From contig JAQVFY010000002.1 of NCBI GenBank assembly GCA_028696995.1, positions 2,647 through 66,646 on the forward strand: DNA of 64,000 nt, in the 5' to 3' direction. The DNA is from Patescibacteria group bacterium (GTDB lineage Bacteria > Patescibacteriota > Patescibacteriia > Patescibacteriales > UBA12465). The position numbers and the translations under genes are program-made. The notes under the pieces were generated by a model. It was not told where the DNA came from, searched no databases, and worked only from the letters and a program-made list of their open reading frames with translations. Below, piece by piece: positions 12,455-57,222 of the stretch. Numbering within the stretch: the first letter of the stretch is position 1; each line of letters opens with the position of its first letter.

Positions 12455-12907
12455 CTAATAACAAGTAGTAGTAGTAGGAATTATCCCTCCAGAAAAAGCA
12501 CATTTGATTCCAGCCGGCATATCAGCCACATTACCACCTAAACAAAATTCAATATAATAATCAGCTCCACTATTCACCTGATTATAAACATAAGAGGAGG
12601 TAGCACAATCACCATCGGCTGGAGTTGGACCATCCGGAACAGTATACATATAAGTATTAGATCCTGTAGCAATAGAAGATCCGGCTGTAACACTAGCTGG
12701 GTATTCACTCTGATCATTAAAATATAATTCTAAAGCAGTTTGTATTTGTCTAATATCAGTTATTCGCTTAGCATCACGAGCCTTACCACGAGCGCTTTGC
12801 AAAGCAACCACCGACAAAGTAGATAATATACCAATAATAGCAATAACAACTAAAAGTTCAATTAAAGTAAAACCTGGCTTTAAAAAATTTGTTTTTTTAT
12901 TAAACAT
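12455..12907 (-). CDS. Type IV pilin-like protein (prepilin N-terminal cleavage/methylation domain)
   Basis: MFNKKTNFLKPG then FTLIELLVVIAIIGILSTLSVVAL. This is a class III signal with G at -1 and E at +5. The C-terminal domain is small and contains Cys. Confidence 0.85.
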   Translation of the reverse strand: MFNKKTNFLKPGFTLIELLVVIAIIGILSTLSVVALQSARGKARDAKRITDIRQIQTALELYFNDQSEYPASVTAGSSIATGSNTYMYTVPDGPTPADGDCATSSYVYNQVNSGADYYIEFCLGGNVADMPAGIKCAFSGGIIPTTTTCY

Positions 12908-23990: not shown

Positions 23991-26597
23991 TTAATCACAA
24001 GGATTAACACTAGGAACACCATTACAACAATAGGGCTCTTGGGCTGTGGCTGAACAATTAAGACCAACACTAGGTTTAAAACAATTCTGATAAATATCTT
24101 TAACACCCGATCCAATTTGTGGAAAATAACTAGCTCCTTCAAAGAATTGAGCATGATTAATATAAGCATTGGTCTTATCTGGCTCCCCATCCAAGGGAGT
24201 GTCATCAATATTTTCTGCTCCTATCCAATAACCAACCAATTGACCGCTAAGTAAATTTATCAAACGATGAGCAACATCACCAATACCATTATTCATAATA
24301 ATTTCTCCAGTACGCAAGGTGCTAGCCATCATTAGTTTATTAAATCCAATTTTAACTGGAGCCCATAAATCAATATTGACATCATCTATTCCTGGGAAAA
24401 TAGAGGTTATCTGAGGAGGATCAGATTCTATTTTATCATTTATCCAAAAAGACCAAGACAAATTATCTCCACTTCCAGGCACAACACTATTCTTATAGTA
24501 AAAAGAGGCTGGCCCATTAGAATAACCATCACTATTTCCATCAAAAGAATTAAAAGAAGCATCTACTACCCCACTATTAGCATTAATATCAGCTAAAGAA
24601 TAAAATTTTCCATTACTATCAGTACAAATATTATTGGTACAAGTAGAAAAAGGGCTTTTATTGGAGCAATTACTATTATCTCCAGAACAATTAAATAAAT
24701 TAGAAGCCTCTATCTCTACTTTTAAATTACTATCTGATGGTAAACAATAAATATCCTCCCCGCAAGCATTAACTCCACAAAGATTATCAGATTTAAACTC
24801 AACGGTCTTGTAATCAGAAGAAATTTGAAATCGACCCGACAAAAAATTACCAACACAAGAAGAATTATTGCATTTTAAAGATCGACAATCACCACCTTGT
24901 GAACATACTTCTCCATTATCTTTAGCTGAAGCACTATTGTTCACAATTCTAATAGTATCAAAAATCTCATAACTCTCTCCTGAAACTCTTAAAGGATTAA
25001 TTGCCTCGTTGAAATTTATTTGAATAATACTATTCATGGGCTTGTCTTTTTTATCGTTAATATTTACAGATTCAACCGAGTTAGCTCCGCCAGAAAAGGG
25101 CTGAATAACAATTTTGTTAGAATCTGAAGAACTAACAGAAAAAAGATTTCCATTAAGACCGGCTATTTTATTAGTTAAATTAATTACCCCTGCTGTAGTA
25201 GATAAAACAGCCTCAATAGATGAATCAAGTGTATTTATAGCATTAACTAAATTAGTAGCCGTCTCAGTCACACTAGCTCCAATTTTAATATTAGAACCAG
25301 AATTATTACCATTGGTAAAATTATACATTAATGAATTTAAAATTACATAATCACTTTCAACTTTTTTGCTAACTTCAACATCCCAGGAATTACCAGCTAT
25401 CACGCTCGGGTTTGTTATATTCGAAGGAATTAACTTAAAATAACCAGTAAAATCAAAGACGTTAGAAACAGGAATAATATCAAAAACTCCCAAAGAAATA
25501 TTTCCACTACTAGAATCCTTACCAAATAATTGAGCCTTGTTTCCATTAGAATCAACCACAACCTCAAAAGAAGTATAATTTCCGTTATAAGTACCAAGAA
25601 TTGAAACATTGGCCGGAACTGACCCTGGTAAAGGAGTAACAGAAACGACACTAGCTGGCTGATAAGTGTTAAAATTATTAGTCAAAAAACTTATAGAGGC
25701 AGTAGCTGGAGTAGCACTTATTATAGATAAACTATCTTTAAGATTATCGGGTTGAGGAAAAATACTATTTATTTTAGGTGGAGTCAAATCTAAAACATTG
25801 CTAACCTCAAAATCCCATAAGAAATAATTACCGGAACAATTATCAAAAATACTACGACTTTCATCAACCACTAAAATATCGTTAGTAAAATAAACAATAT
25901 AATTAGTAAAACTATTTTCATTGCCCAAATAATTACTAGGTGTAAAAGTAAATATTTTATTATCTAAAGTATTAACCGAAAAACCAGTTGACTGAGAACA
26001 AGTTTTTTTATCAACGTCAAAATCACCCTCTTCGCAAATAATTACACTAGAGGTCGAAATAGTAGAAGAAGAAACTTCCTCTTTAAAAGTCGCCATAATC
26101 ATAGTATTTCTAGGAACAGCCTTTTGTCGAGGAGCTGGATAAACGCTCTCTAAACTACAAGCCCCAATAGCTCCTAAACCATTTTGAAAAAAAGCCTGAC
26201 CTGGAGAAATATTGCCGTTATTAGACTGTCCATCAGAAAACAAACTTCTAAAAATAAAAGTAACAATACCCCAAGCTGATAAAACTATAATCAAACCAAT
26301 AAGAGCATTTTTTAAAACTCTCTTAGCCTTAGATACTTTTTCCTCATTGCCTTCAGAAGTCATCCACAAAAATCCTCCAAATATAGCTAAAGAAACCGCA
26401 ATAATAGCTAAAAATCCTAAAGCTACATTTATAATTTTAACAATAATTGATCGAGGATCAGTAGATTCTAAAACAATAGTATTATCAACCGCTTCTATTC
26501 CTAAAGAATCACTGGCTAAAACAAACTTGCTAGCCAGAATTAAAAAAAACAAAAGAATAAAAGAAAACAATAAAAATATTTTTCTATTTTTCATCAT
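23991..26597 (-). CDS. Giant Cys-rich surface protein with N-terminal signal peptide plus TrbC/VirB2-like (T4SS-pilin-like) two-helix membrane module
   Basis: Signal peptide MMKNRKIFLLFSFILLFFLILA. Two helices, IINVALGFLAIIAVSLAIFGGFLWM and ALIGLIIVLSAWGIVTFIF, flank SEGNEEKVSKAKRVLKN. About 740 aa of S/N/T-rich sequence with Cys clusters follows. Confidence 0.6.
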   Translation of the reverse strand: MMKNRKIFLLFSFILLFFLILASKFVLASDSLGIEAVDNTIVLESTDPRSIIVKIINVALGFLAIIAVSLAIFGGFLWMTSEGNEEKVSKAKRVLKNALIGLIIVLSAWGIVTFIFRSLFSDGQSNNGNISPGQAFFQNGLGAIGACSLESVYPAPRQKAVPRNTMIMATFKEEVSSSTISTSSVIICEEGDFDVDKKTCSQSTGFSVNTLDNKIFTFTPSNYLGNENSFTNYIVYFTNDILVVDESRSIFDNCSGNYFLWDFEVSNVLDLTPPKINSIFPQPDNLKDSLSIISATPATASISFLTNNFNTYQPASVVSVTPLPGSVPANVSILGTYNGNYTSFEVVVDSNGNKAQLFGKDSSSGNISLGVFDIIPVSNVFDFTGYFKLIPSNITNPSVIAGNSWDVEVSKKVESDYVILNSLMYNFTNGNNSGSNIKIGASVTETATNLVNAINTLDSSIEAVLSTTAGVINLTNKIAGLNGNLFSVSSSDSNKIVIQPFSGGANSVESVNINDKKDKPMNSIIQINFNEAINPLRVSGESYEIFDTIRIVNNSASAKDNGEVCSQGGDCRSLKCNNSSCVGNFLSGRFQISSDYKTVEFKSDNLCGVNACGEDIYCLPSDSNLKVEIEASNLFNCSGDNSNCSNKSPFSTCTNNICTDSNGKFYSLADINANSGVVDASFNSFDGNSDGYSNGPASFYYKNSVVPGSGDNLSWSFWINDKIESDPPQITSIFPGIDDVNIDLWAPVKIGFNKLMMASTLRTGEIIMNNGIGDVAHRLINLLSGQLVGYWIGAENIDDTPLDGEPDKTNAYINHAQFFEGASYFPQIGSGVKDIYQNCFKPSVGLNCSATAQEPYCCNGVPSVNPCD

Positions 26598-31666: not shown

Positions 31667-31682
31667 AGAATAATAAAACCAA

Positions 31683-31781
31683 ATCCATAAATTAGGCAAA
31701 ATTTATGGATCGATAATCCATAAATTTGTCAAATTTTATGGAGTGGCAATCCATAAATTAGGGTAAATTTATTCTTTTTGA
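31683..31781. repeat. Three tandem 33-bp units, each an inverted-repeat site ATCCATAAATT-N6-AATTTATGGAT
   Basis: ATCCATAAATT starts at 31683, 31716 and 31749, an exact 33-bp period. Units 1 and 2 carry the partner half-site AATTTATGGAT / ATTTTATGGAG; unit 3 is degraded (AAATTTATTC). Confidence 0.8.
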
Positions 31782-33096: not shown

Positions 33097-33936
33097 ATGA
33101 AAAAAATTATCAGGTCTTATTTTCTCGCCTTCGCTGAAGAAACGGGAAGAAAAAATTTTGTTTTTTTTATCGTTTTAATTATAGTAGTCTTAATTTTAAT
33201 GCTATGCAATCACAGCATCATTAATAAAGACTATCTTGATCAAAAAGATATTCTAATTTTTCTGCTCGCATTTGGGATACCAATACTTAATTACATTTTA
33301 TGTAAAAAGGTTAAATCAATTTTTATTTCCATGCCACCGTATGAGAATGCCCGACATGACAGCGCTACAATTCAATTAATTATTCAACAGATAATTACTC
33401 AACGGGAAGGATCCAGGATTATATTCAAACAAAAAAGGGAGAAAATAAAATTCAACAAACCAATTTGGGGTAAAGGTATCATTAAGAAACTAAAAACTAC
33501 TGACCAACAATCAAACTGGACATGGAATGATGTTGAAACAATGGAAGAAAATATTCTAGTGATTAAAACCAAAATCTCTGGAAGATGGAAAAACTCCACC
33601 ATTGAAATCCCGGTAAAAATAAAAATTCAAACCAACAAAGACTTTAATCCCATCGAAGTTTTCGACAAAATTCAATCTCCGGACGACCAGGAAGTGGTGC
33701 ACCTGCCGAAATACTTCCGGCATATTTTTAAAAACATAAACGAAAAAAATCAGGAAAAAATCCAAAAACTAATTACAGATTACGCCGAAATGAAAATTTC
33801 TGAATCAATTTTGATTAGTGAAGTCATCGACCTCCTGATTTTCCCGGAAAGACCTTTTTCTAATGTGAAGAATGTCCAAATATGTCTAGAGGCTCCAGAA
33901 GCCTCATCCTGCAAAGGAATGGTCTGCGGAAAATAG
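33097..33936 (+). CDS. Hypothetical membrane protein (two N-terminal TM helices)
   Basis: 279 aa with no recognisable motif. The 3-prime half is visibly richer in G+C than the 5-prime half. A clean terminator follows. Confidence 0.5.
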   Translation: MKKIIRSYFLAFAEETGRKNFVFFIVLIIVVLILMLCNHSIINKDYLDQKDILIFLLAFGIPILNYILCKKVKSIFISMPPYENARHDSATIQLIIQQIITQREGSRIIFKQKREKIKFNKPIWGKGIIKKLKTTDQQSNWTWNDVETMEENILVIKTKISGRWKNSTIEIPVKIKIQTNKDFNPIEVFDKIQSPDDQEVVHLPKYFRHIFKNINEKNQEKIQKLITDYAEMKISESILISEVIDLLIFPERPFSNVKNVQICLEAPEASSCKGMVCGK

Positions 33937-33947
33937 CAACAAAAACA

Positions 33948-33973
33948 AAGGAAGCCAATGCGCTTCCTTTTTT
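33948..33973 (+). terminator. Intrinsic terminator of ORF 33097
   Basis: AAGGAAGC, loop CAATGC, GCTTCCTT, followed by a T-run (33968-33973). Confidence 0.7.
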
Positions 33974-33978
33974 AATTA

Positions 33979-34044
33979 AAGTGTCTAAAAAAATATTACT
34001 TTTATAACATCGGATGTCGAAAAAGACATTACTTTTATGACATC
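33979..34044. repeat. Two tandem 33-bp units (26/33 identical)
   Basis: Unit 1 (33979-34011) is AAGTGTCTAAAAAAATATTACTTTTATAACATC. Unit 2 (34012-34044) is GGATGTCGAAAAAGACATTACTTTTATGACATC. Compared base by base by hand. Confidence 0.75.
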
Positions 34045-34048
34045 TACC

Positions 34049-34067
34049 TACTGTCTAAACTCACAAA
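34049..34067. repeat. Left copy of exact 19-bp direct repeat TACTGTCTAAACTCACAAA
   Basis: Identical to 35463-35481, which is the stop codon plus last codons of the helicase-nuclease gene read on the opposite strand. Confidence 0.85.
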
Positions 34068-34248
34068 AAATAATGGTAATTATTTTCTTGGCCCACTAAA
34101 TCAAGCTAAGAAAAGGAAAAATAATAAAAAGAAAAGAGAAAAAGGAGAAAGAGAGAACTCTCAACCAGCGCTAAAGCACTGACTGAGTAAGGAATATTGA
34201 TTATTAAACCCAACTTCGTCGCGTTTTGTACGACTACAGCGAAGTAAA

Positions 34249-35292
34249 TCAATTCTGAAGACAGCGAACTGAAAAACCGTAGATCTGATCATTACTACTA
34301 GTGTTAATAACAGCGTGACCAGAGAGAATATAGTGATCCCAAGCACCAGATCCCTCAACCGAAGACGACCAAAAGAGAGCATAGTCAGCAATACCATCAA
34401 AAAAACCATCGGCATCGCGACCACCAGCTGATAAGGCCGTGAAACCAGATTCATTAGTAGCTCCAGTATTAGGAGAATTCCAGTGAGTGGTTCCAACTTC
34501 TTTCATTTTGCCTCCAGCTACTAACGTTCCCCCTAAATAATTAATCAAAGTAACCCATTCGGAGTTAGATGGTATATGCCATCCTGAGGGACAAATTCCT
34601 TGATTTAGCTCAGTAGTAATTCCACACATAGATTGAGTCCATTGATATAATCCTCCATAAATATCACAATTACCTTCTAAATTATTATAACAATATTTTT
34701 CTATATTAGCACAACTTGTTCCCTGATCGCTAGAACCGTTCACCATAGTACCAATATTTAAATTTTTAGCCATCCAACATTGAGTACCAATCTGAACCGT
34801 AGGATAAAAATTTGAATCTCGAGAGTCTATTAAATTATCGCCGCAAGCCCAGGGGGTTAGAGTGGTTATACCACTAGGGCTAGCGACTTTAACCCCTTCG
34901 CCCAATCCTCCGACCCCTGATCCTGTACAGAATGTTATAGTATAAGTTGAACCGTCGGTTGATTCATAAATATAATTATTATCACTTTCAATACATTCTC
35001 CGTCTTGAGGAGTTGGGGCGGTTGGTACTGTTGCCATATAGGTTACTCCGGCTGTAGCAATAAAACTATCTATTTCCCCAGTTAAAGGATATGTTCCGTG
35101 ATCGCTTATATATAAAGATAAGGCTGTTTGAATTTGTCTAATATCAGCCATTCTTTTAAGATCTCTAGCGCGACCTCGAGCATTCTGTAAAGATACTACG
35201 GCAAGAGTTGCTAAAATACCGATAATAGCGATTACCACTAATAACTCTATTAGTGTAAAAGCGAGTTTATTAGATTTAAATTTTTTAAACAT
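34249..35292 (-). CDS. Type IV pilin N-terminus fused to a Fibrobacter succinogenes major paralogous (FISUMP) domain
   Basis: MFKKFKSNKLA then FTLIELLVVIAIIGILATLAVVSL. C-terminal motifs: QCWMAKNLNIGT, GGLYQW, CPSGWHIPSNSEWVTLINYLGG, AGGKMKEVGTTHW, NESGFTALSAGGR, ALFWSSS, GFSVRCLQN. Confidence 0.8.
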   Translation of the reverse strand: MFKKFKSNKLAFTLIELLVVIAIIGILATLAVVSLQNARGRARDLKRMADIRQIQTALSLYISDHGTYPLTGEIDSFIATAGVTYMATVPTAPTPQDGECIESDNNYIYESTDGSTYTITFCTGSGVGGLGEGVKVASPSGITTLTPWACGDNLIDSRDSNFYPTVQIGTQCWMAKNLNIGTMVNGSSDQGTSCANIEKYCYNNLEGNCDIYGGLYQWTQSMCGITTELNQGICPSGWHIPSNSEWVTLINYLGGTLVAGGKMKEVGTTHWNSPNTGATNESGFTALSAGGRDADGFFDGIADYALFWSSSVEGSGAWDHYILSGHAVINTSSNDQIYGFSVRCLQN

Positions 35293-35461
35293 AAATTCTA
35301 TTTTTATTTATATATAATGATAAAATTTCTCTTGTCACTCTCGCAAAAGCAGAAAACCAAACACCTACCGAGTATTAATAAAATCCTCGATTTAATCACA
35401 TATAGCCTTCGGCTACGCGACTAGTAAGGATGACGATAAAAAATAATAAATCGAAATAGCT

Positions 35462-38437
35462 TTACTGTCTAAACTCACAAATCCCTTTAAAATCACAAAA
35501 ATCACAAGTAAAAGACGAGGGTTTTGGCAAAAATTGCTTTTTTCTAATTTCTGCTACGCTATCAAGCAGCCACTCCTCCATTTTTTCAATATCCTTATCT
35601 TTAGCCTCAAAACTCAACTTTTGTCCATTCTCTAAATAATAATAACTCAGCTTATCAACTTTTATCCCAAAAGAAGCTTCAGCAACCATTTTATACAAAA
35701 CTAACTGTCGTTTATCATCAGTTTCCAACTTATCCTTACCAGAACCAGTCTTATAATCAATAATCTCAAAATTGCCCTCACCTATTTTATCAACTCGATC
35801 AATCTTTCCTTTAATTAAAAAATCTTGAAATTTAAAACGAAAATCTTTTTCTAAAAAATAAATCTCCGGCAAATTCTCACTCATTAAATCATTGAAAAAA
35901 TTTTTCAATAAATCCAAACCCTTCTGCCAATACTCATCTCGTTTTTGCTTACTGCCATAACCCTCATCCTGCCAAAACTTTTTATACAACTCTAACAATT
36001 TTTTCTCGCTTAATTTACTTTTCAAATCACCTTCTTTTTTAACAGAAGAAAACAAATCAGCTTGCATATTATTATTAGCAATAATTGGAAGTAAAAAATT
36101 ATATAAAGTATCATGGATAACTCGTCCAAAAGTTAAACTGGGTTTATCTTCGGAAGATGGAATTTTTAAAATATGAGCATATTTATATTGCAAAGGACAT
36201 TTATCAAAAGCAGCAAACTGAGAAAAAGAAAAATGAGCCGGTAATTGATAATCTTCTTTTTTCTCTAATTTAGGCTTTTCTTCGCTTATAACTTTTAAAT
36301 CTTTCAAAAATTCCAGACTTGAAAAATCAATTTTATCTACTACCTCTAAATCTAAACCAGCCTCTTTAATAAAAGCTGACGGTCTTTTTTCACGTGCCCC
36401 ACCAAAATCCTTGGCGCTAGTTAAAAATAATCCTTCCTTAGCTCGAGTTAAGGCTACATAAAACAAGCGGCGTTCTTCTTCAATATGAAAATTATCATTT
36501 TCAGAAATTTTTTCCTTAATTAAGGCTGGATGAATACTTATTTTTTCAACCCTAGAATCACTAGGAAAGCGACGCTCTACCAAATCCACTAAAAAAACAT
36601 ATTTAAATTCCAAACCCTTAGCCGAATGAACAGTCATTACCTTAACCGTGTCAACATCAACAAAATCATTTTTAAGTCCACCCGTATCACCAGCCTCTAA
36701 CTCAAATTCCAAGGCTTCAATAAAATCTTTAAGGCGCAAATCTTCCCCATTCTCTTCAAACTTTTTTATTTTTTGATAAAATTGATTAATATATGAAAAA
36801 GTTTCCCTATCTCTTTCGTGATGCAAATTTTTTAAAATCTCACTATCATAAATGAACTTAATAAAAATAAAACTTGGTTTTTTATCACCGACAAAAGCTG
36901 AATGGTTTTTTATTAAACTCAATAATTTATTAATTTTAGGAAAAGACTCAGCACTAAGCCCCTTAACCTTATCAATATTTTCCAAAGCTTCATATAGAGA
37001 CCAATAATTTCTCTTAGCGAAAGAATTTAAATTCACCAAATCAATATTGGAAATTTTAAAAGCCTCCATATTTAAAACCCGAAACAAAGCCGAAGATTCT
37101 TTATAATTATCAAGTAATTTAAAATATGAAATGATATCCAAAACTATTGCCTTATAATACAAACCGCGAAGAGACACAAAATGATTCGGGATATTAAGGC
37201 GACTGAGATCCTTAGAAAAAATATCAGCTGTGTTATTAGTTCGAGATAAAATAGCAAAGTCTGACCAATTAGTCTCCGGCTCTTTTTCATAAATTTCCAT
37301 TATCTTAGCTGAAACAAAATTTAACTCATCTGATTGAATTGAAAAATTAATAGCGGATACAGCCGGATTTTTGCTAGAAAACTTTAAGCGAGATTTTAAT
37401 TTTTTATTAATATTTAATTTAACCTCTAAACGATTGGGGTCATTGTTTTTGATAAATTTATAAGCCACGTCCAAAATTTCTTGACGGGAACGATAATTAT
37501 TACTCAAAATTATTTCCTTAGTATTAGGAAAATCATCCTTAAATTGCATAATATTAGAAATTGAGGCTCCGCGAAATTTATAAATAGACTGATCATCATC
37601 ACCCACAACCATTAAATTATTTTTACCTTCTGCCAATAATTTTATCAACTCATATTGAGCTAAATTAGTATCCTGAAATTCATCAACCATCAAATATTTA
37701 AACTTATCCTTTAAAATTTTAGAAATATTAGGACGAGTTTTAAATAATTTAATAGTATAATTTATCAAATCACCAAAATCTAAAAAATTATTTTCTATTA
37801 ATAATTTATTATATACATTATAGGAATTAGATAACTCTTTTAATCTCTCTAATTCCAAAGCCTCCTCAATATCATCTATTTCCCTGCCTGAATTTTTCTG
37901 CATTTTTTTATCCAAACTATCAACTAATTTTTGATAATCTTCACTGGAAATATTTTCGTCTTTTAGACGTGAAAAATGCGATAATAATTCGGCAATAAAT
38001 TTATTGGGGTTACCAGAAGAATGATAATATTTTAAATTTAATTTTTCTAGATTTTTTTTCAAAAAAACCCATTGAGCAGTACTATCCAATAATTTAAACT
38101 CGGGATTTAAACCAATCTCTAGTCCATATTGACGCAAAATTCTCTCTGCAAAGCCATGAAAAGTATGTATCCATAAATCAACATAACCATAAGGTAAAAT
38201 TTTGTCAGCTCGCTCGATCATTTCATTAGCTGATTTTTCAGTAAAGGTTGTTAATAATATTTCATCAGTCTTAAGCTTCTTTTCCATTATTAAATAAGCT
38301 AAGCGATTGATTAAAACAGTAGTCTTTCCGGTCCCAGCGCCAGCTACTACCAAAAGCGGACCCTTATCATGTTTAACAGCTAATAATTGCTCTTTATTCA
38401 ATTTTTTCAATTCTTCATTCATATTTATATATACCAA
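35462..38437 (-). CDS. UvrD/PcrA-type superfamily 1 helicase fused to a C-terminal PD-(D/E)XK nuclease with Cas4/AddB-type 4-Cys cluster
   Basis: LLVVAGAGTGKTTVL Walker A, MVDEFQDTN, VMTVHSAKGLEF. Nuclease region: IDRVDKIGEGNFEIIDYKTG, QLVLYKM. Cys pattern: one Cys in FDKCPLQYKY plus CDFCDFKGIC. Confidence 0.85.
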   Translation of the reverse strand: MVYINMNEELKKLNKEQLLAVKHDKGPLLVVAGAGTGKTTVLINRLAYLIMEKKLKTDEILLTTFTEKSANEMIERADKILPYGYVDLWIHTFHGFAERILRQYGLEIGLNPEFKLLDSTAQWVFLKKNLEKLNLKYYHSSGNPNKFIAELLSHFSRLKDENISSEDYQKLVDSLDKKMQKNSGREIDDIEEALELERLKELSNSYNVYNKLLIENNFLDFGDLINYTIKLFKTRPNISKILKDKFKYLMVDEFQDTNLAQYELIKLLAEGKNNLMVVGDDDQSIYKFRGASISNIMQFKDDFPNTKEIILSNNYRSRQEILDVAYKFIKNNDPNRLEVKLNINKKLKSRLKFSSKNPAVSAINFSIQSDELNFVSAKIMEIYEKEPETNWSDFAILSRTNNTADIFSKDLSRLNIPNHFVSLRGLYYKAIVLDIISYFKLLDNYKESSALFRVLNMEAFKISNIDLVNLNSFAKRNYWSLYEALENIDKVKGLSAESFPKINKLLSLIKNHSAFVGDKKPSFIFIKFIYDSEILKNLHHERDRETFSYINQFYQKIKKFEENGEDLRLKDFIEALEFELEAGDTGGLKNDFVDVDTVKVMTVHSAKGLEFKYVFLVDLVERRFPSDSRVEKISIHPALIKEKISENDNFHIEEERRLFYVALTRAKEGLFLTSAKDFGGAREKRPSAFIKEAGLDLEVVDKIDFSSLEFLKDLKVISEEKPKLEKKEDYQLPAHFSFSQFAAFDKCPLQYKYAHILKIPSSEDKPSLTFGRVIHDTLYNFLLPIIANNNMQADLFSSVKKEGDLKSKLSEKKLLELYKKFWQDEGYGSKQKRDEYWQKGLDLLKNFFNDLMSENLPEIYFLEKDFRFKFQDFLIKGKIDRVDKIGEGNFEIIDYKTGSGKDKLETDDKRQLVLYKMVAEASFGIKVDKLSYYYLENGQKLSFEAKDKDIEKMEEWLLDSVAEIRKKQFLPKPSSFTCDFCDFKGICEFRQ
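35463..35481. repeat. Right copy of exact 19-bp direct repeat TACTGTCTAAACTCACAAA
   Basis: Lies inside the 3-prime end of CDS 35462..38437 (encodes ...CEFRQ stop). Confidence 0.85.
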
Positions 38438-38445
38438 TAAAAAAA

Positions 38446-39429
38446 CTAAACCTCACTAATTACATCAAAATTTTTATAACTACCGACAACTGAATAACCA
38501 AAAACTTTAACATTTTTATTTATATTTTTTATTTTCTTGGCCACCTCATTTAAAGTTGCCCCTGAACCAGTGGCATCATCGATAATTAAGACATTGCCTT
38601 TTATCTCTTGACTGGGCTTAACAGAAATAGTTTCATTGGCATTTATAATTCTGTCCTCTAGCTTTCTAAGTGTTTTTTGAGGAATCTTTATATCACCGGA
38701 AGTTTTACTGATAATAATATTTTCCAATTCAATATTTAACTCTTTTTTAAAAACATCCATAAATTGAATTTTCCTGTCTATAGTTGGGGGTATAAAACCA
38801 ACGAAATCTATCTTTTTTTTATTTATTATTTTTTCTATTGCCGGATTAACAATTCTAACAATCTCCTTAATAATTTTTTTATCCTGAGATGTTTTACCTA
38901 AGTAAACCAATTGTCCTAATTTAGTTTTTCCAAAATAATCAAAAGTATAGAAATCACTAAAATATATATCATCTAAATAAACTTTATTTTTTCCGGCCAA
39001 TATTTTATTTTTAGCAGAAAATAGTTCATCTTTTTTATTTTTATTTAATACTTTTAATTTTTTATAAAAATTATCTTTTTCTTTTTCAAAATCAAAATTA
39101 TTTTTCTCGCACCAAGTACTAAAACCGTCTATTCCTCGAATTATATCACCATTGGGAGATAAATAGATATAATTTTGTTCAATAAAATAATCTTTAATAC
39201 TTTTAACTACAAGATTTTTATCTTTATTTAATTTAATAGAGTAGTAAACCTTTGGAGTGTTGCCATTTTTCTTAATCAAATCCTCATCTAAAAGTCGGGT
39301 TAAATGTTTATATATATTCTTAATAGATATTTTAGAAATTTTAACAATTTCCGATGATCGAATCGGTCCAAATTTTTCTATTATTTCTAGAATTTTAATT
39401 GTTTCTTTTGATAAATTGTTCATGTCCAC
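38446..39429 (-). CDS. Winged-HTH domain plus C-terminal phosphoribosyltransferase (PRT) domain protein (PurR/ComF-like architecture)
   Basis: N-terminus IKILEIIEKFGPIRSSEIVKISKISIKNIYKHLTRLLDEDLIKK (wHTH-like). C-terminal PRPP-loop-like VLIIDDATGSGATLNEVAKKI. The track start is GTG 39429; ATG 39423 is probable. Confidence 0.6.
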   Translation of the reverse strand: MDMNNLSKETIKILEIIEKFGPIRSSEIVKISKISIKNIYKHLTRLLDEDLIKKNGNTPKVYYSIKLNKDKNLVVKSIKDYFIEQNYIYLSPNGDIIRGIDGFSTWCEKNNFDFEKEKDNFYKKLKVLNKNKKDELFSAKNKILAGKNKVYLDDIYFSDFYTFDYFGKTKLGQLVYLGKTSQDKKIIKEIVRIVNPAIEKIINKKKIDFVGFIPPTIDRKIQFMDVFKKELNIELENIIISKTSGDIKIPQKTLRKLEDRIINANETISVKPSQEIKGNVLIIDDATGSGATLNEVAKKIKNINKNVKVFGYSVVGSYKNFDVISEV

Positions 39430-47638: not shown

Positions 47639-50600
47639 CTAAACGTAAGTAACACTAGCCACGCAGTCATTTGCGTCTTTAAAGCGCATAATGCGGACTC
47701 CCTGGGTATCACGGCCCAATTCATTAACTGACTTATATGGCAAACGAATAACCTGCCCCTTATCGGAAATAATTATCAAATCCTTACCCTCCATGTTGTC
47801 CTTATTTATCACAAAGGCGTTACTAATTTTTCCGGTTTTATCGGTAACCTTAGCAGTACGAATACCACTGCCTCCACGACCCTGTAATTTATATAAATCC
47901 AAATCAGTTCTTTTTCCATAACCTTGATCCATAATAGTTAAAATCTGATAACTACGCTTAACTCCTTTTTCAACTTTTATAACCCCCATCCCAACAACAA
48001 TATCTCCCTTTTTCAATTTAATACCACGAACACCCGAAGCATTACGACCCATGTCACGCACCTCTTTTTCAGCAAAACGAATAGCTTGCCCATTGGCACT
48101 TATCAAACTAATATGGTCAGATCCAGAAGTTGGCTTACACCAAATCAATTTATCATCATTTTTTATCTTAATCGCTATCAAACCACTACGTCGGACATTA
48201 GAGAAAGCATTAATTTGTACTTTTTTAACTAAACCTTGTTCAGTAGCAAAGAATAAATAATTATAGGCAGCTATTTTATCCAAAGGTAAAATAGAGGTAA
48301 TTTTTTCTCCGCCAATTAATTGCAAGAAATTAACAATTGGAGTTCCCTTGGCGGTGCGAGAGGCCTGAGGAATTTCATGAGCTTTTAATTGAAAAACTCG
48401 ACCCTTGGTGGTAAAAAATAATATATCATTATGAGTTTGAGTAATAAACATGAAATCGACGCTATCCTCTTCTTTGGTGGTCAAACCAATAACACCCTTA
48501 CCTCCACGAGCTTGGACCTTAAAAGTATCAGGGTCTAAACGTTTAATATAGCCATCACGAGTCATCATTACCATTGTTTCTTCGTTTGGAATCAAATCTT
48601 CAACATTAAAACTCTTAACTCCATGAGCTACCACTTGGGTACGACGTTCATCACCAAATTTCTCTCCCAATTCTGTAATCTCAGTTTTAATAATATTTCT
48701 AATCTTGGCCTTAGAAGCTAAAATAGCTTCTAATTCTTTAATCAATTTTAATTTTTCCTTTAACTCATCCTCAATTTTAATCCTTTCCAAATTAGCCAAA
48801 CTTTGCAATCTCATCTCCAAAATAGCTATAGCCTGTCTTTCAGATAATTTAAATTTCTTTATCAAATTTTCTTTAGCTACATCCTTATCTTTAGATGCCT
48901 TAATAACTTTAATAACCTCATCAATATTTTTTAAAGCAATCATCAAGCCCTCTAAAATATGGGCCCTATCTTTGGCTTTATTTAATTCAAATTCAGTACG
49001 ACGATAAACTACTTCTTGGCGATGTTTAATATATTCCTCTAAAACCATTTTCAAAGTCAAAACCTTGGGCTGAATTCCATCAATCAAAGCTAACATATTA
49101 ACATGAAAAGTGCTTTGCAAAGCAGTGTTTTTATACAAACTATTTAATATTTTCTTAGGATAAGAATCTTTTTTAAGATCTAAAACAATGCGAACCCCTT
49201 CTTTATCAGACTCATCACGCAAACCCTTAACTCCGTCTAATTTTTTATCTTTAACCAAGTCGGCAATTTTTTCTACTAAGGTTGCCTTATTAACTTGATA
49301 AGGAATTTCGGTAATAATTATTTGAAAATTACCATTTTTATCTTCTTTAATATCAGCTCGACCACGACAAACTATTCCCCCTTTGCCGGTAGCATAAGCA
49401 TTTAAAATATCTTTTTTATCATAAATAATTCCACCAGTTGGGAAGTCCGGCCCCTTAACATGTTCCATTAAGTCTTCTACTGTAGATTCTGGTTTATCAA
49501 TCAATAAGTTTATAGCTCCAATCAATTCACTTAAATTATGAGGAGGAATATTAGTAGACATACCGACAGCAATTCCCATGCCTCCATTTAATAATAGGTT
49601 AGGTAATTTCGCTGGCAAAACCTGAGGCTCTTTTTGTGAACCGTCGTAATTAGGTATAAAATTAACGGTATTTTTATCAATATCAAATAATAATTCCTCA
49701 GTAATAGCTGATAATTTAGCCTCGGTATTATGATTTATGAAGCCATTAGCTATAAAGGAATGACAAGGGCTATCAACTTTAATAGAAAAAACATTTTCCT
49801 TGTCTTTCAAATTTTCCTTTGACTTAACTTGATTGAAAAAGTAATTATTCTTTAATAAATAATCAATCATTTTTAAATCTGAAGAATTTAAGATGCTCTT
49901 TAATTGATTATAATTTTTTCTTAAACTATTATAACGATCAAAATTGTTCTCAACTATAAAACTATTTTTATAATTTGATCTTAAATAATTATTTAAAAAT
50001 GGAATAAAGTCATTATGACTCAAGCGAGTAGTATTGATTTCCGAGATCTTAGATAAAATTCCTCTTTTACGTTGAGAAAAAAAGTTAATGTTTTTTTGAA
50101 AATTTACAATACTATCAACTCCGGAAATTATTAATTTATAGCAAGCATTTCTCTTATCCTGATAAGGAGAAGTAGTAACTACACCAAAATTCAATAAAAC
50201 TGTTTTTAATTGACTGATAAGTTTCTTGCTTTTAGAATTATAAGTCAGCTCAATAGACTGACCTGAATGTCTTTTGTCTTTTTTAAAAGAAACAGAACCA
50301 TCTCCCTCAAATAATGCTTGCAAAAAAGAAGAAATAACTACTCGGCTAGACATTAAAACAGAAAAAGGAATTTCCTTTGCGTCAGATTTTTTAGAAGACA
50401 ATCCAATTTCTTTCAAAAACTCAACAATATTTTTTTCATAAATACAAAGTTCTGGACAATTACCCTTTAAAATTCTTTCATATAATTTAACTTCCGGAAA
50501 TTGCTGAGAAATTATATTTTTAACTTTATTATAAAAATCTTTATCGGAATTACAAAAGAAAAATTTATTTTGATGATAAGACCCTTCTGACACTAAAGCT

Positions 50601-51565
50601 CCTAAAAGAAAAGCTAAGTCTTTAGTCATCTTTTTAGGTAGAGTAATTTTTTTACTCTTAATATTTTCTAAAGGATAAAATTTTTCTAAATCCAAATCAT
50701 CTTTAGAAAATAAAGACGCTCCTCGACTTAAAGGTAAATAATCATTTTTATTAATATTTTCTAAGGTTTTCCAATAAAAATAGGGTTGACCAAATTCGTT
50801 TAAGCCCCACAATAATAGAGGATGATTATATGAACCACGAATTTCATAACCCTGCTCAGTGCTTATTTTTACAATCTCATGCTTGCCAGAATTAAAAAAT
50901 TTAATAGCTGGTTTTATTTTCCCTTGATAATTTAAAATATTTATCTTTATTTTCTCTTCACTTTTTTTGGATAATGAATTTATTTCTACTAGACCTCGAT
51001 CAGTTAAAAGTAGCGTATCGCCAGTAATACAATACCTCATCGCCGCCGCACTATCACCGTCCATAGAACCAAAGTTTCCTTGACCCCGAACCAGCGGATA
51101 ACGCATCGAAAAGTCCTGCGCCATACGAACCATAGAATCATAAACAGCACTATCGCCATGAGGATGATATTTACCTAAAACTTCTCCAACCACTGTAGCT
51201 GATTTACGAAATTTAGCATTGGCCTTTAAACCAATATCCCACATCGCATACAAAATACGACGATGAACCGGTTTCATACCATCACGAGCATCCGGCAAGG
51301 CTCGAGAAACAATAACACTCATAGCATAATCCAGATAAGATGAGCTCATTTCTTCACTAATAGATTGATTTTGCACAACGCCAAATTCAGTTTGACGACG
51401 ACCATTACCATTTGTTTCTGTCGACTCTTCAATTGGATTATTTTCAACAACATCCTCAGAAATATCTTTAGAAATTTCCTTATCAGTACTCTTAGAAATA
51501 TCTTTTTTAGCTGGCTTAGCTGAATTATCAGCTATAGTCTTCTTATTTTTATCTGATTTCTTCAT
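47639..51565 (-). CDS. gyrA: DNA gyrase subunit A, interrupted by an in-frame intein
   Basis: Extein motifs [32 protein letters not shown] and AAMRY then TEAKLS, plus C-terminal beta-pinwheel repeats. 1308 aa including the 435-aa intein. The N-terminal extension of about 65 aa is K/E/S-rich. Confidence 0.95.
49727..51031 (-). mobile_element. GyrA intein with LAGLIDADG homing-endonuclease domain, inserted after the catalytic Tyr
   Basis: Residues 179-613 start [11 protein letters not shown] directly after AAMRY and end FINHN directly before TEAKL. LAGLIDADG blocks are [14 protein letters not shown] and [12 protein letters not shown]. Boundary codons were verified on the sequence (TGT at 51031-51029, AAT at 49729-49727). 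Confidence 0.9.
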
Positions 51566-53844: not shown

Positions 53845-54993
53845 CTATCTGGACTCCCAACGATCCCTACGAAGATTCACCCCGTAGACGTTCTTGCTTC
53901 CAATGGGAAGATAAAGAATCTTCGTTTCCTTAAACTTATTGCCATAGACAATAGTTGGAATTGAAGACTCCTTCAACCGCAGCTTGAGAGTCTTACCTGG
54001 CGCTATATTATAGCTTTTCCAGGTAACTCCCTCAAAGGCATCCGTCCGGAGGTCAACCTCCGTTTTTCTCCCCTTGGCGATATATTCGTCGGGGATGAAG
54101 ACAGTCACGTCTTCGTTGCGCGTGTTGCGCATCTTGACGAGAGTCCTCTTACCGGAAAACGTCGCTTTCCCTTCATCAGCAAATGCTAATGGGTTAAAGG
54201 AAGATTTTTCCAGAATGACCTCTCCTTTAGAGATAAAGGCAGTAACACGTTCCTCGCCCGATATCCCGTTGGGAAGCCCCAGACGACAAATGAAATCGTA
54301 AACCCCGTCCGGCATCATAGCTGGGGCCAAAAATTCAAGGTTGCCCTTGTCATTGGCCTTGATAACCATATTCACGTTCCACTGCTTATTTTGCAGTGAG
54401 AAGGTGAATCCGACAGGAGATTCAACCTTCAACGTTAAAACGTTGAGGCCGAGGTCGGCGGAGGTGATGGTGGCTCTAGCCAAAATGTCGTCACCATCTG
54501 GCTCGGAATTTTGGTCAAAGTTGATTTCAAGCAACTTCTTCACTCTTTCCCCGGTAAATGGATTAGTGAATTCGGCCTGGACCAAGAGCTTCTTGGCCTT
54601 GACATCCTTCAAAATGGAAGAATAAAGCAAGGCCGAGTCTGAGCTGGCACAGGTTGTGGTCGGCGCGGTGGCGAGCTGGTAGACATCGCCAATCTTGACG
54701 ACCCGGCTCACGAATGTGAACTGGGCGGTGCTCTTGTTGACGATGTTCGAAAACTCAATCCGGTTCCGGATGGTTCCGAAATTGCCGGAAAGATAATTCT
54801 CTTGGTAAGCCGGACTTTCCCGCAGGACCAGGTCCTTTAGGATAGTCTTGTTTTCAATTTCGATGTTGCCCACGAAGGACTTCATCTCAATCGGTAAACT
54901 ACTGATTGACCTGGACGGTGTGGTCTCCTGTGCCATCAAAAAAATCGGCACAAAAAAAACAAAAACAAACAAAATTCCAAAAAATTTTTTCAT
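53845..54993 (-). CDS. Secreted protein of unknown function (G+C-rich island gene 1)
   Basis: Signal peptide MKKFFGILFVFVFFVPIFLMAQ. The RBS AGGAG lies 8 nt upstream. 382 aa with no recognisable motif. G+C is far above the window background. Confidence 0.65.
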   Translation of the reverse strand: MKKFFGILFVFVFFVPIFLMAQETTPSRSISSLPIEMKSFVGNIEIENKTILKDLVLRESPAYQENYLSGNFGTIRNRIEFSNIVNKSTAQFTFVSRVVKIGDVYQLATAPTTTCASSDSALLYSSILKDVKAKKLLVQAEFTNPFTGERVKKLLEINFDQNSEPDGDDILARATITSADLGLNVLTLKVESPVGFTFSLQNKQWNVNMVIKANDKGNLEFLAPAMMPDGVYDFICRLGLPNGISGEERVTAFISKGEVILEKSSFNPLAFADEGKATFSGKRTLVKMRNTRNEDVTVFIPDEYIAKGRKTEVDLRTDAFEGVTWKSYNIAPGKTLKLRLKESSIPTIVYGNKFKETKILYLPIGSKNVYGVNLRRDRWESR

Positions 54994-55012
54994 GATACAG
55001 TCTCCTATTTTT

Positions 55013-55112
55013 ATTGGTTAGTTTAAAATTTAATTGTCTTGCAAATCAACAAAAAATGATATTAAATCAAATAAAATCATTGACTTGCTAGACAATTAAA
55101 ATATTAACCAAT
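55013..55112 (-). promoter_or_regulatory. Long imperfect inverted repeat forming an extended stem-loop in the leader of CDS 53845..54993
   Basis: The left arm ATTGGTTAGTTTAAAATTTAATTGTCTTGCAA (55013-55044) pairs with the right arm TTGCTAGACAATTAAAATATTAACCAAT (55085-55112). An inner AATGAT...ATCATT pair lies in the loop. Confidence 0.5.
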
Positions 55113-55141
55113 CTTGTTAATGTACCTAATTTTAACTTGAA

Positions 55142-55170
55142 ATTATAGCATATAAGCATTTTTTTGTCAA
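55142..55170 (-). promoter_or_regulatory. Consensus sigma70 promoter P1 (island gene 1)
   Basis: Minus strand: TTGACA-aaaaaatgcttatatgc-TATAAT, a 17-nt spacer with TGC giving an extended -10. Confidence 0.65.
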
Positions 55171-55393
55171 TAGAGGTATAAAATAGCTTAAAATAGGGGT
55201 TTTTATCAAAAAAATAAAAATTAAAAAATTATTATAATATCTTTATATTTTAAAAATTAAATATTTTAAACAATTAAAAATTTGCTTTGCGCACTTTTTA
55301 TATAAAATTTAATGACTGTTTCTGACTATTAATACTTATTATTTTAATTAAAATAAATATTTTTACTAACTGAATTTAAATAATAAATTCTAC

Positions 55394-55424
55394 TAATAAA
55401 AAAGCAGAGATTTCTCTCTGCTTT
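55394..55424 (-). terminator. Intrinsic terminator of CDS 55444..56148
   Basis: AAGCAGAGA (55402-55410), loop TTTC, TCTCTGCTT (55415-55423). The minus-strand transcript ends in a T-run. Confidence 0.75.
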
Positions 55425-55443
55425 ACCACGATTTGACTGAACC

Positions 55444-56148
55444 TTACCTGGTTCTGTCAAGGATGCCTTGCATGGCATCCATCGTAGCGATGGCCCTTTC
55501 CATCCCGCTTGAGCAGGAGGAAGTGGGGGCTGGTGTCGGAGCCGGAACTGACTGTGGAGCGGTAACCCGCTCAACCAATGCTTGGTTGAGCTGATCCTGC
55601 TGAGCATTACGCTCAGTTTGTTCCTGCTGGCCCCTCTCCAACTTACTGATCCGCCCCGAATTGGAGCGGGACCGACGATCAGCACTTCCGGCCAAGGCTT
55701 TGGCTCTCTCGGCTTCATCTTTGGCCAGATTGGCTCTGGTTTGAGCATCACTGGCCTCAATCTGGGCCTTGTCACCCCCCCTCTCAACATTTCTGTTGAT
55801 AAGGAAGCTGGCCACAAAGATGGCCAAGATCAATCCTCCGACAATAGCTGCAACTGCCCACCAGTTAACCACTGGGGAATTAACAACAGCAACGGCGTTA
55901 GCATTGTTGCCTTGTGCTGGGTTTGGCTGTGGCTGTGGTTGTGGTACAGGTGCTGGCTGTGGAGCCGGTTGCGGCTGTGGCTGCGGTACCGGTTGCGGTT
56001 GTGGCTGTGGAGCCGGTTGCGGTTGTGGCTGTGGCTGTGGAGCCGGTTGCGGTGCTGGTGCTGGCTGTGGAGCCGGTGCCGGTTGCGGCTGTGGTTGCGG
56101 TGTAGACGGAATATCGATGTAAGTTCCGTCCGGAAGATGAATTCTCAT
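55444..56148 (-). CDS. Bitopic membrane protein with P-Q/P-A repeat region and coiled-coil-like C-terminal half (G+C-rich island gene 2)
   Basis: Track ORF (TTG 56235) trimmed to ATG 56148, which has AAGGAGG 7 nt upstream. Sequence: MRIHLPDGTYIDIPST, then 63 residues of PQ/PA/PV repeats, the TM helix WWAVAAIVGGLILAIFVASFLI, then a Q/E/R/A-rich tail. Confidence 0.65.
   Translation of the reverse strand: MRIHLPDGTYIDIPSTPQPQPQPAPAPQPAPAPQPAPQPQPQPQPAPQPQPQPVPQPQPQPAPQPAPVPQPQPQPNPAQGNNANAVAVVNSPVVNWWAVAAIVGGLILAIFVASFLINRNVERGGDKAQIEASDAQTRANLAKDEAERAKALAGSADRRSRSNSGRISKLERGQQEQTERNAQQDQLNQALVERVTAPQSVPAPTPAPTSSCSSGMERAIATMDAMQGILDRTR
55912..56100. repeat. Degenerate 6-nt tandem repeats encoding the (P-Q/A/V)n tract
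   Basis: The plus strand reads GGCTGTGGCTGTGGTTGTGG...GGTTGCGGCTGTGG. All six frames are open here, which generates the WLWLW, GCGCG and VAVVA shadow ORFs in the track. Confidence 0.85.
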
Positions 56149-56311
56149 AATAACCTCCTTTTTTTTATTGTTTTGTAAATGAATTTGCTGGTCATTTGAA
56201 GTTATAAACAAATAATGCTTTATCAAAAAATACAAGAAAATGTCTATAAACTCAAATAACCAGTAAATTCAAAAACCTTTTTGTCAAAGTTCTATTTTTA
56301 ATTAACTGAGA

Positions 56312-56340
56312 ATTATAGCATATAGACAAAAATTTGTCAA
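56312..56340 (-). promoter_or_regulatory. Consensus sigma70 promoter P2 (island gene 2)
   Basis: Minus strand: TTGACA-aatttttgtctatatgc-TATAAT, followed by TCTCAGTT. Confidence 0.65.
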
Positions 56341-56457
56341 TACTACATAAAGCCTATAAAAACGGGCTATTTTAAAGTTTTCTAAAATATTATTAAAAAA
56401 ATTATTGAAAAAAAATAAATTTAAAATACCCTACTAATAAGAAGAATTTTACTGGCC

Positions 56458-56486
56458 TTGACTTTTTTTAATAAGTATGCTATAGT
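56458..56486 (+). promoter_or_regulatory. Near-consensus promoter P3 (island gene 3), divergent from P2
   Basis: TTGACT-ttttttaataagtatgc-TATAGT, followed by TCTCAGTT. The TATGCTATARTTCTCAGTT block is shared with P2. Confidence 0.6.
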
Positions 56487-56520
56487 TCTCAGTTGTGATT
56501 TAAAATTCTTTAACAAACAA

Positions 56521-56585
56521 TTAAAGTCTCTTTAGAGAATAGGAAGGCGGTTTTTCGTTCTTTTTATTTTCTAAAGAGATTTTAA
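56521..56585 (+). promoter_or_regulatory. 16-bp stem hairpin in the leader of CDS 56615..57199
   Basis: TTAAAGTCTCTTTAGA (56521-56536) pairs with TCTAAAGAGATTTTAA (56570-56585), with one G-U pair. The loop is 33 nt. The hairpin ends 30 nt before the ATG. Confidence 0.55.
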
Positions 56586-56614
56586 TTAAAAACAAACCAA
56601 AAAAAGGAGAGAAC

Positions 56615-57199
56615 ATGGCAACTATCACAAAAAAAAACGAAATCAGCGACGCCGATGTCGCCAAGATGATCAAAAAAATGGAATCCGGCTACCCCATCCA
56701 CAATGAAAAGGGGGTAATGATCGGAATCGAAATCGAAGGCGGAGAAAGCGTTATGATCTCCAACTGGGAGCACAAGGTGCTCGCTGTCTTCGAAAACGTC
56801 CGTTTCAGGACACCGCGGGAAGACGATCAGTACCTTAAATTTGTCGACACGGCGGTCACCCTGACCAGAGGTGGCAAAATTCTGGAAATTCCGGGATACT
56901 GGAGAAGGGGTGTGTGGATCGCCAAGAAATTGGTGACCGTCACCTATCGGATGGCTGGCCAAATGTCCGCTAAAAGCGTACCGATCGGAGTGGACGCGGT
57001 AGGTAAAGTAGAAATCCGCGAATCCAGCAACTCCCACACAGGAGAAAAAAGGATAATCATAGATTACTACTTTTACCCCTCCCCCGTGCAAACCTTCTAC
57101 GAGGTAAAAATCGGAGGAAAAAAAAGGGAGAGTACCGTATTCTCCAAACCCATCCCTGGAACCGAAGAACTTATTGTCGTCAACAAAATCGGAAAATAA
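56615..57199 (+). CDS. Soluble protein of unknown function (G+C-rich island gene 3)
   Basis: AGGAGA RBS 6 nt upstream, own promoter and terminator. 194 aa with no recognisable motif. Preferred over the antisense ORF 56582..57220, which has no signals. Confidence 0.6.
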   Translation: MATITKKNEISDADVAKMIKKMESGYPIHNEKGVMIGIEIEGGESVMISNWEHKVLAVFENVRFRTPREDDQYLKFVDTAVTLTRGGKILEIPGYWRRGVWIAKKLVTVTYRMAGQMSAKSVPIGVDAVGKVEIRESSNSHTGEKRIIIDYYFYPSPVQTFYEVKIGGKKRESTVFSKPIPGTEELIVVNKIGK

Positions 57200-57222
57200 T
57201 TTCCGACCAGTTGACGCCACAC

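Follow-up and report, generated by a model that had tools for sequence, protein, structure and literature searches.

How does a gene for a surface pilin come to lie between two exact copies of the last nucleotides of a DNA repair gene? The question is raised by a 64-kb stretch of Patescibacteria DNA, referred to here as the window (all 64,000 nucleotides that were analyzed; coordinates are window positions unless another contig is named), in which a pilin-FISUMP gene follows a UvrD-type helicase gene and is bracketed by a 19-bp direct repeat of that gene's 3' end. We compare the locus with its counterparts in relatives and with raw-read assemblies of its source population. The comparison indicates that a cassette carrying the pilin gene entered the helicase stop codon, did so recently, and is polymorphic; we hold insertion, recency, and polymorphism, taken jointly, to be very probable. 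The features on which the argument turns are these:

34049..34067, no strand assigned: left repeat copy, the relic of the original helicase terminus; the helicase gene ends of two relatives, L091 and L089, match this copy and its left flank
34068..35462, minus strand: inserted DNA, 1,395 bp (1,414 bp with one repeat copy), made up of a leader, the pilin-FISUMP gene, a terminator-like hairpin, and a 92-nt tail
34249..35292, minus strand: pilin-FISUMP gene, 347 amino acids (aa), combining a Fib_succ_major domain with the N-terminal methylation motif of type IV prepilins
35463..35481, no strand assigned: right repeat copy, the last five codons plus the TA of the stop of the functional helicase gene
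35462..38437, minus strand: target gene, a UvrD-type helicase fused to a PD-(D/E)XK (AddB/Cas4-like) nuclease; Pfam UvrD-helicase, UvrD_C, and PDDEXK_1

The 19-mer TACTGTCTAAACTCACAAA is found at 34049-34067 and at 35463-35481, a start-to-start distance of 1414 bp, and a scan of both strands of the window with up to 3 mismatches returned these two copies and nothing else. Identity extends over exactly 19 bp; on either side, the neighboring bases are unlike (c/t before, a/t after). Read on the reverse strand, the right copy is TT TGT GAG TTT AGA CAG TA, which is ..I-C-E-F-R-Q plus the first two stop-codon bases of the helicase open reading frame (ORF) at 35462-38437. The left copy is intergenic; its reverse strand, TGT GAG TTT AGA CAG TAG, holds an in-frame stop (next base G). 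An earlier note on this DNA had described just this arrangement, with two copies 1414 bp apart, the right one being the helicase 3' end (CEFRQ-stop) and the left one intergenic, and the scan and the ORF reading confirm it.

Could such a repeat exist without any insertion? It might be a chance match, a shared regulatory motif, or the product of a chimeric assembly through the 19-mer. AT-rich genomes do at times yield long exact repeats, and the window holds three other exact 19-20-mers, all of low complexity (A/T runs or part of a tandem array). The repeat also contains TAGACA, a -35-like hexamer, and the 19-mer occurs in unrelated DNA (contigs L003, L004, and L092). Against chance stand the repeat statistics, both simulated and empirical. 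An exact repeat of at least 19 bases within 2 kb arose in 1.3-1.7% of Markov-simulated windows (300 per model), and one of at least 19 bases anywhere that holds at least 6 G/C bases arose in 1.3%; for the recurrence of TACTGTCTAAACTCACAAA itself within +/-2 kb, the chance expectation that the earlier note had proposed to calculate is a probability of ~1e-7. As an empirical null, the last 40 bp of the gene plus the next 15 bp were sought downstream at ~75 loci of helicase relatives: the longest own-end repeat was 12 bp (13 bp in the upstream control), compared with 19 bp in the window, and none of the ~75 relatives has a duplicated helicase end.

The occurrences of the 19-mer elsewhere (L003, L004, and L092, from genome, metagenome, and viral collections) are unrelated in context and as numerous as expected by chance. 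The match in L004 sits in a 679-aa ORF and that in L092 in an 870-aa ORF of a high-GC viral contig. L003 is a plasmid-like contig whose positions 1500-1620 form an iteron array of AAAGTACTGTCTAAACCCCGTC units, the final unit holding the exact window 19-mer; we judge this match to be chance, given the size of the collection. The further copies that the earlier note thought worth seeking thus did not appear in any related context, and no genome, metagenome, or viral collection has the 19-mer at a related locus. The 19-bp repeat is a true duplication, far above chance.

Which copy is the old one, and what did the site look like before the pilin gene? The answer lies to the left of the repeat, where three features bound the site:

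33982..34044, minus strand: flank A, two tandem copies of a conserved palindromic motif, TGTnnnAAAAGTAATGTnTTTTTnnACA
33947..33970, no strand assigned: bidirectional terminator hairpin, common to orf279 and, ancestrally, to the helicase; conserved in L007, L008, L089, and L091
33097..33936, plus strand: orf279, a convergent hypervariable membrane-protein gene without a Pfam family, the left boundary of the site

L091, a Logan contig of 1,756 bp from SRR22315506 (a sibling run of the sample holding the window's strain), belongs to a near-identical strain and matches the window helicase at 95.6% nucleotide (nt) identity over its last 405 nt and 98.5% aa identity over its last 135 codons. It reads GGGATTTGTGAATTTAGACAGTAGgtaggTGTCATAAAAG… and continues without interruption through the motif pair and the terminator to an orf279 allele. 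When the window's empty site is reconstructed, L091 matches it at 98% across the junction, with 92-100% on the helicase side and 95% in the flank. L089, from a more distant species whose helicase is 84% identical in aa, is uninterrupted too (...TTTAGAGCTTAGgtagaTGT...): its helicase ends ATT TGT GAG TTT AGA GCT TAG gtaga TGTTTAAAATTAACGTC, to be compared with TGT GAG TTT AGA CAG TAG gtaga TGTCATAAAAGTAATGTC at the window's left copy, and the window minus 34068-35481 aligns collinearly with it at 85%.

The helicase ends of L091 and L089 (...TTTAGACAG/GCT TAG gtag(a/g) TGT...) hence match the left repeat copy together with its left flank, which ends ...TGACATCTACC, and a TAG stop is present in L091, L089, and L085. 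In at least 10 relatives, homologs of the 112 bp left of the repeat come immediately after the helicase, which marks flank A as the natural neighbor of the helicase stop codon. By these comparisons, the left copy and its flank are the ancestral helicase terminus, and the alignments show an ancestral locus that ran helicase...TTTGTGAGTTTAGACAGTA-G-gtaga-palindromic motif x2-terminator-orf279. They place the pilin cassette between the TA and the G of the old TAG stop, with the gene's last 19 nt on both sides. The helicase stop is now TAA, its final A supplied by the first base of the insert; the ORF is otherwise unchanged. For this strain, the empty-site junction would read TTTATGACATCTACC-TACTGTCTAAACTCACAAA-TCCCTTTAAAATCAC, and the junction of an excised circle would read AAATCGAAATAGCTT-TACTGTCTAAACTCACAAA-AAATAATGGTAATTA. 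The earlier note had proposed insertion at the helicase 3' end, with the end regenerated and a 19-bp duplication left behind, and had pointed to empty sites in relatives as the evidence to look for; both L091 and L089 supply it and support the proposal.

Is the insertion fixed in the population from which the window comes? In Logan, the exact pilin protein is on record once, on L001, a contig of 1,455 bp from SRR22315504 that is identical to window 34038-35492 and has the repeat 11 nt from each end. The exact orf279 protein lies on L002, also from SRR22315504; this contig stops at the final base of the left copy (34067) and has an overlap of exactly 30 nt with L001. Logan builds its assemblies as k=31 de Bruijn graphs, with singleton k-mers dropped and a Minia3 SPAdes-style simplification (PMC12424806). 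Because a 19-bp repeat alone makes no branch at k=31, these contig ends call for a second allele. With A for the left flank, R for the repeat, X for the cassette, and B for the helicase side, the ends of L001 and L002 are those expected if 12 nt of A plus R has a second successor and R plus 12 nt of B a second predecessor. From the graph structure and the contig ends, we infer that reads of the form A-R-B (empty) or A-R-X2-R-B (another cassette) coexist with the filled allele; an A-R-B bridge is 41 bp, under Logan's 150-bp reporting limit. Circle-junction k-mers would set contig ends at 34049/35481/34078, and the ends seen instead, 34038/35492 and 34067, argue against a circle junction in SRR22315504.

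The same assembly bears on the filled allele. Both filled junctions are contiguous in raw-read k-mers, where L001 joins 11 nt of each flank to the insert, and a chimeric metagenome-assembled genome (MAG) is excluded by these contiguous junctions in an independent k=31 assembly. Between the repeat statistics, the raw-read junctions, the collinear empty sites that mark the left copy as the old gene end, and the chance-level matches elsewhere, the account without insertion is left with next to no probability, and we judge it refuted.

What, then, was gained? As the earlier note had it, the bracketed DNA contains only the pilin-FISUMP gene, its upstream region, and the terminator-like hairpin. The two noncoding parts are:

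35293..35462, minus strand: leader, 170 nt between the helicase stop and the pilin start, with promoter-like hexamers
34160..34187, minus strand: terminator-like hairpin with a 12-bp stem, downstream of the pilin gene and 92 nt from the insert end

The cargo protein (NCBI MDD3711096.1, Patescibacteria MAG) has both hallmarks of a pilin-FISUMP protein, the prepilin methylation motif (N_methyl, PF07963; 29.4 bits, cutoff 21.2, E=5e-7) and Fib_succ_major (PF09603; 123 bits, cutoff 33.9, E=2e-35). The family is very large and fast-evolving in Patescibacteria (3,825 matches at E<=1e-20), and the nearest homolog of this pilin among 5.8e9 proteins is just 57% identical. In Patescibacteria, type IV pili are needed for host attachment and DNA uptake. 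The gained gene likely encodes an extra type IV pilin with a lectin-like FISUMP head, that is, a surface adhesin or pilus variant. Two further links were considered and rejected. Diversity-generating retroelements are reported to target FISUMP domains (PMC11661182); the window has neither a template-like repeat of the gene nor a reverse-transcriptase match. As to a viral origin, IMG/VR holds distant FISUMP-domain relatives only (35-52% identity over the FISUMP part, the best covering 61 residues). Elsewhere in the window, 12455-12907 encodes a second pilin-like protein of 150 aa with the N_methyl motif alone, 55% identical to the N-terminal 146 residues of the cassette pilin, and 23991-26597 encodes an 868-aa pilus-related protein with T4SS_pilin and Big_5 domains.

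The pilin gene had also been called G+C-elevated. The elevation is real (0.386, compared with 0.31 for the window) and fails as a sign of foreign DNA, for the G+C at third codon positions (GC3) is 0.239, compared with a mean of 0.243 over 47 window ORFs, and the excess lies at codon position 2 (0.476). The raised G+C is an effect of the amino acids of a Gly/Ala/Thr/Ser-rich protein; it carries no signal of foreign origin, because GC3 equals the window mean, and it fits a donor of similar composition. The compositional argument for an insert is accordingly ruled out. The second pilin-like gene at 12455-12907 has the same G+C pattern by codon position.

How the cassette is expressed can be read in part from its borders. 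The best promoter match in the leader is TAGACA-17-TATTAT, whose -35 box belongs to the repeat; promoter matches in the leader do not exceed the level of shuffled sequence. A search for a leader RNA element gave no Rfam match above noise and a folding z-score of -0.75. There is no terminator between the helicase and the pilin gene, and transcriptional read-through from the helicase into the pilin gene is therefore also possible. The cassette is single-copy in the window, and no homologs of its leader and tail are found at the relatives' loci. Of the target gene itself, the real start is probably the ATG at 38422 rather than the annotated start. The encoded helicase is 100% identical to the NCBI Patescibacteria protein P0001; exact-protein look-ups with the helicase (two start codons plus P0001) and with a 327-aa neighbor recorded none.

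Is this stop codon a preferred site? The order helicase-ruvB-queA is conserved across Patescibacteria and Falkowbacteria, often with the genes directly adjacent, and the content of the helicase-ruvB gap varies among closer relatives:

L005, L006, L017, and L009 (helicase 74-83% aa identity): an AAA_14/DUF4143 ATPase gene after the helicase
L007 (85% aa): a different pilin-FISUMP cassette after the helicase, then orf279
L085 (92% aa): directly after the stop, a leader of the type seen in L007
L089 and L008 (84% and 76% aa): orf279 only after the helicase
L090 (81% aa): other small ORFs after the helicase

The gap upstream of the helicase, between an M16 peptidase gene and the helicase, is variable too, with a pilin-FISUMP gene in L007, L090, L086, and L087 and nothing in L089. 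Since both gaps vary in content among relatives, the two flanks of the helicase are a hot spot of gene, and specifically pilin, turnover. In the window, this upstream gap (38446-39429) holds a gene with HTH and PRTase-like features, G+C 0.25, and no flanking repeat longer than 9 bp.

In both L007 and L085, a pilin cassette unlike that of the window begins right at the helicase stop, and the leader of the window cassette is not homologous to that of the L007 and L085 cassettes. These open with TTGACC-17-TATAAT around a G9 run (L007 8960-9210; L085 3154-3189), followed in L007 by a GC-rich leader of ~200 nt that contains numerous inverted repeats (CGTGCC…GGCACG). Around six other pilin-FISUMP genes of relatives, the L007 cassette included, flanking repeats reach 11 bp at most, and short Logan pilin-FISUMP contigs from other samples, used as controls (L086-L088), have no end repeats.

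The palindromic motifs of flank A recur at these loci. In the window, the motif pair sits 5 bp left of the left repeat copy; in L007, one motif copy follows the pilin cassette. In L005, L006, and L017, a TTGACT-17-TATAAT promoter comes after the helicase stop, and behind it stand two tandem palindromic motifs (TGTATAAAAAGTAATGTATTTTTATACA), the second of which overlaps the start codon of the AAA_14/DUF4143 ATPase gene (L005 motif pair 3003-3064). The window keeps the motif pair and has no ATPase gene; the motif is also present in L007 and L089. By its placement in these relatives, the window pair is probably an operator-like relic. On the far side of the terminator, orf279 has just 5 homologs among 5.8e9 proteins. 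Its window and L091 alleles are ~50% identical in aa and 57-75% in nt, the DNA on either side is 95-98% identical, and the borders are sharp (near 33160 and 33946); the divergence between strains looks like allelic replacement of a membrane-protein gene.

How did the cassette enter? We tentatively favor a one-off Campbell-type insertion across the 19 bp, to which we give roughly an even chance. Incoming DNA would have carried the last 19 nt of a helicase gene followed by the pilin cassette, and a single-crossover-like recombination across the 19 nt would have joined it to the chromosome. The donor may have been a close relative whose pilin cassette already adjoined its helicase stop codon; helicase-plus-cassette donors are plausible because the L007 and L085 cassettes begin immediately after the helicase stop. 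The 19-bp anchor is duplicated and ends inside the stop codon; at the opposite border stand 7 T in a row. The distal repeat edge inside the stop codon would then be the end of donor-recipient homology, which explains a repeat ending in a stop codon more simply than a dedicated att core does; the proximal edge, in the run of seven T, would be an illegitimate joint, possibly with microhomology. A dedicated mobility enzyme would not be needed, and the window encodes RecA and RuvB/RuvC.

Duplication of a homologous anchor is a documented product of a single crossover between a circularized fragment and the chromosome, and classical homology-facilitated illegitimate recombination pairs one homologous end with 3-10-bp microhomology at the other (PMC3240628). 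Like the events described by Amarir-Bouhram et al. 2011 (PMC3240628), the present one has foreign DNA beside a homologous anchor, a duplicated anchor, and a candidate short microhomology, here the T-run; unlike them, it has an anchor of 19 bp, where the duplications of that study span 109-950 bp, and no identified donor. Classical homology-facilitated illegitimate recombination, moreover, usually deletes recipient DNA and does not duplicate it.

Other points also tell against a Campbell-type insertion. Nineteen base pairs are very short for RecA-dependent recombination, and no donor with this cassette beside its helicase was found, the nearest pilin in the protein search above being that at 57% identity. 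The second SRR22315504 allele rests on contig ends and could be another cassette instead of an empty site. The recombinase search spans just 64 kb of the genome. To integrate at the 3' end of a conserved gene and regenerate it is the classic signature of elements with a tyrosine integrase. Finally, this is a single event, with no replication by which to test a mechanism.

The main rival takes up that signature and fits the anatomy as well as the Campbell-type insertion does. The 19-mer would be an att core, its copies attL and attR, recognized by a recombinase of the tyrosine or serine type whose gene lies at another place in the genome or on a helper element, and the cassette would be a cargo-only cis-mobilizable element (CIME-like) able to excise and re-integrate. 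The direct repeats include and regenerate the 3' end of a conserved gene, relatives have the empty site, and a second allele occurs in the same sample; the other pilin cassettes that L007 and L085 hold at the helicase stop suggest a preferred site. The evidence specific to mobile elements points the other way. Window ORFs of at least 120 aa contain no integrase, resolvase, or transposase domain (Phage_integrase, Resolvase, DDE), and the 1.4 kb holds no element-gene remnant. The 19-mer lacks dyad symmetry, and a search for arm-type or other internal repeats turned up low-complexity matches only. The L007 cassette and five other neighboring pilin genes have flanking repeats of 11 bp at most, no related-context 19-mer exists in the genome, metagenome, or viral collections, and the contig ends fit A-R-B and not a circle junction. 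We consider this explanation possible and, on balance, unlikely.

CIMEs have lost their integration genes and kept attL and attR (PMC5704250). Like the 3'-end integrative elements and CIMEs reviewed by Guedon et al. 2017 (PMC5704250), the locus has direct repeats, a regenerated gene 3' end, an empty site, and no integration gene inside. Unlike them, its insert is 1.4 kb with one cargo gene, no relic of an element, and no integrase nearby; there is no evidence for circle excision, the core does not recur in other genomes, and the repeat ends exactly in a stop codon. The earlier note was right that no recombinase lies within the bracketed segment, and its reading of a cassette mobilized in trans or of a decayed element finds no support: window ORFs of at least 120 aa lack recombinase domains, the insert lacks terminal inverted repeats, and the collections searched contain no second copy of the cassette, nor of the repeat in a related context.

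An exact duplication that abuts the insert on both sides is also what a staggered break would leave, if a 1,395-bp fragment had been set between 19-nt overhangs and the gaps had been filled; the break itself would be due to a transposase acting in trans or to one-off repair after DNA uptake. Insertion sequences with unusually long duplications exist, such as those of the IS1634 group. The insert, however, has no terminal inverted repeats (11/24 terminal positions match, no more than the AT-rich background), the window has no transposase, the cassette is single-copy with its nearest gene relative at 57% identity, and a staggered break gives no reason for a duplication ending inside a stop codon. 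We rank this explanation third and think it improbable.

A broader conjecture would extend site-specific integration to the whole family. A trans-acting system may move the pilin-FISUMP genes of Patescibacteria as single-gene cassettes, with the 19-mer as core and the stop-codon regions of housekeeping genes as targets, so that the helicase flanks would serve as a cassette platform for varying surface adhesins. If the conjecture is true, an ultra-small episymbiont would possess an integron-like system that brings promoters of its own; we regard it as a long shot. Like integron gene cassettes, the inserted unit is a single-gene, recombinase-less unit at a defined site. Unlike them, it has its own leader and terminator, and its 19-bp duplication far exceeds the core site of integrons (7 bp). 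At the cassette end, no attC-like imperfect palindrome was recognized, with no formal attC model run, and the one strong hairpin is the terminator-like 12-bp stem; the window has no intI, and no attI was found.

Why does such an event matter? Gain and loss of pilin-FISUMP genes is poorly documented, nearly all Patescibacteria genomes being metagenome bins. The locus provides a case resolved to the base pair, with a filled allele, two orthologous empty sites, and a within-sample polymorphism read from contig ends. It shows that a lone adhesin gene, accompanied by its own leader and terminator, can settle beside a core repair gene and leave it undamaged; the 19-bp repeat permits precise loss of the cassette and restoration of the ancestral site. 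The kind of event, gene gain at a core-gene 3' end with a short duplication, is already known; the instance is new. If one-off, it is a useful, ordinary example of short-homology gene gain in a naturally competent lineage; if enzyme-driven, it would point to a new cassette system, and alternative cassettes sharing the same core, should reads reveal them, would raise its interest beyond the modest.

The nearest parallel in a well-known organism is the pilA region of Pseudomonas aeruginosa, where a fixed site between conserved genes holds different pilin alleles in different strains. Variable pilin loci of this kind are believed to swap alleles through homologous recombination in the flanking DNA, which leaves no duplication. 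The helicase locus is like pilA in that both sides of the gene carry, lack, or swap pilin-FISUMP genes in this clade; it is unlike pilA in that one event left a 19-bp duplication that records the joint.

Three further observations concern other parts of the window. The gyrA gene (47639-51565) is interrupted by an intein with a LAGLIDADG homing endonuclease (Pfam Intein_splicing and LAGLIDADG_3). A tandem array of three 33-bp units, every one an inverted repeat (AATCCATAAATT…AAATTTATGGAT), occupies 31682-31780 in the queA-ruvB spacer. At 53845-57220 lie three ORFs that are real compositional outliers, with G+C 0.47-0.54, GC3 0.47-0.59 (window mean 0.24), and no Pfam match; the middle one encodes a long (PQ/PA)n tract, which corresponds to a tandem array at 55918-56101.

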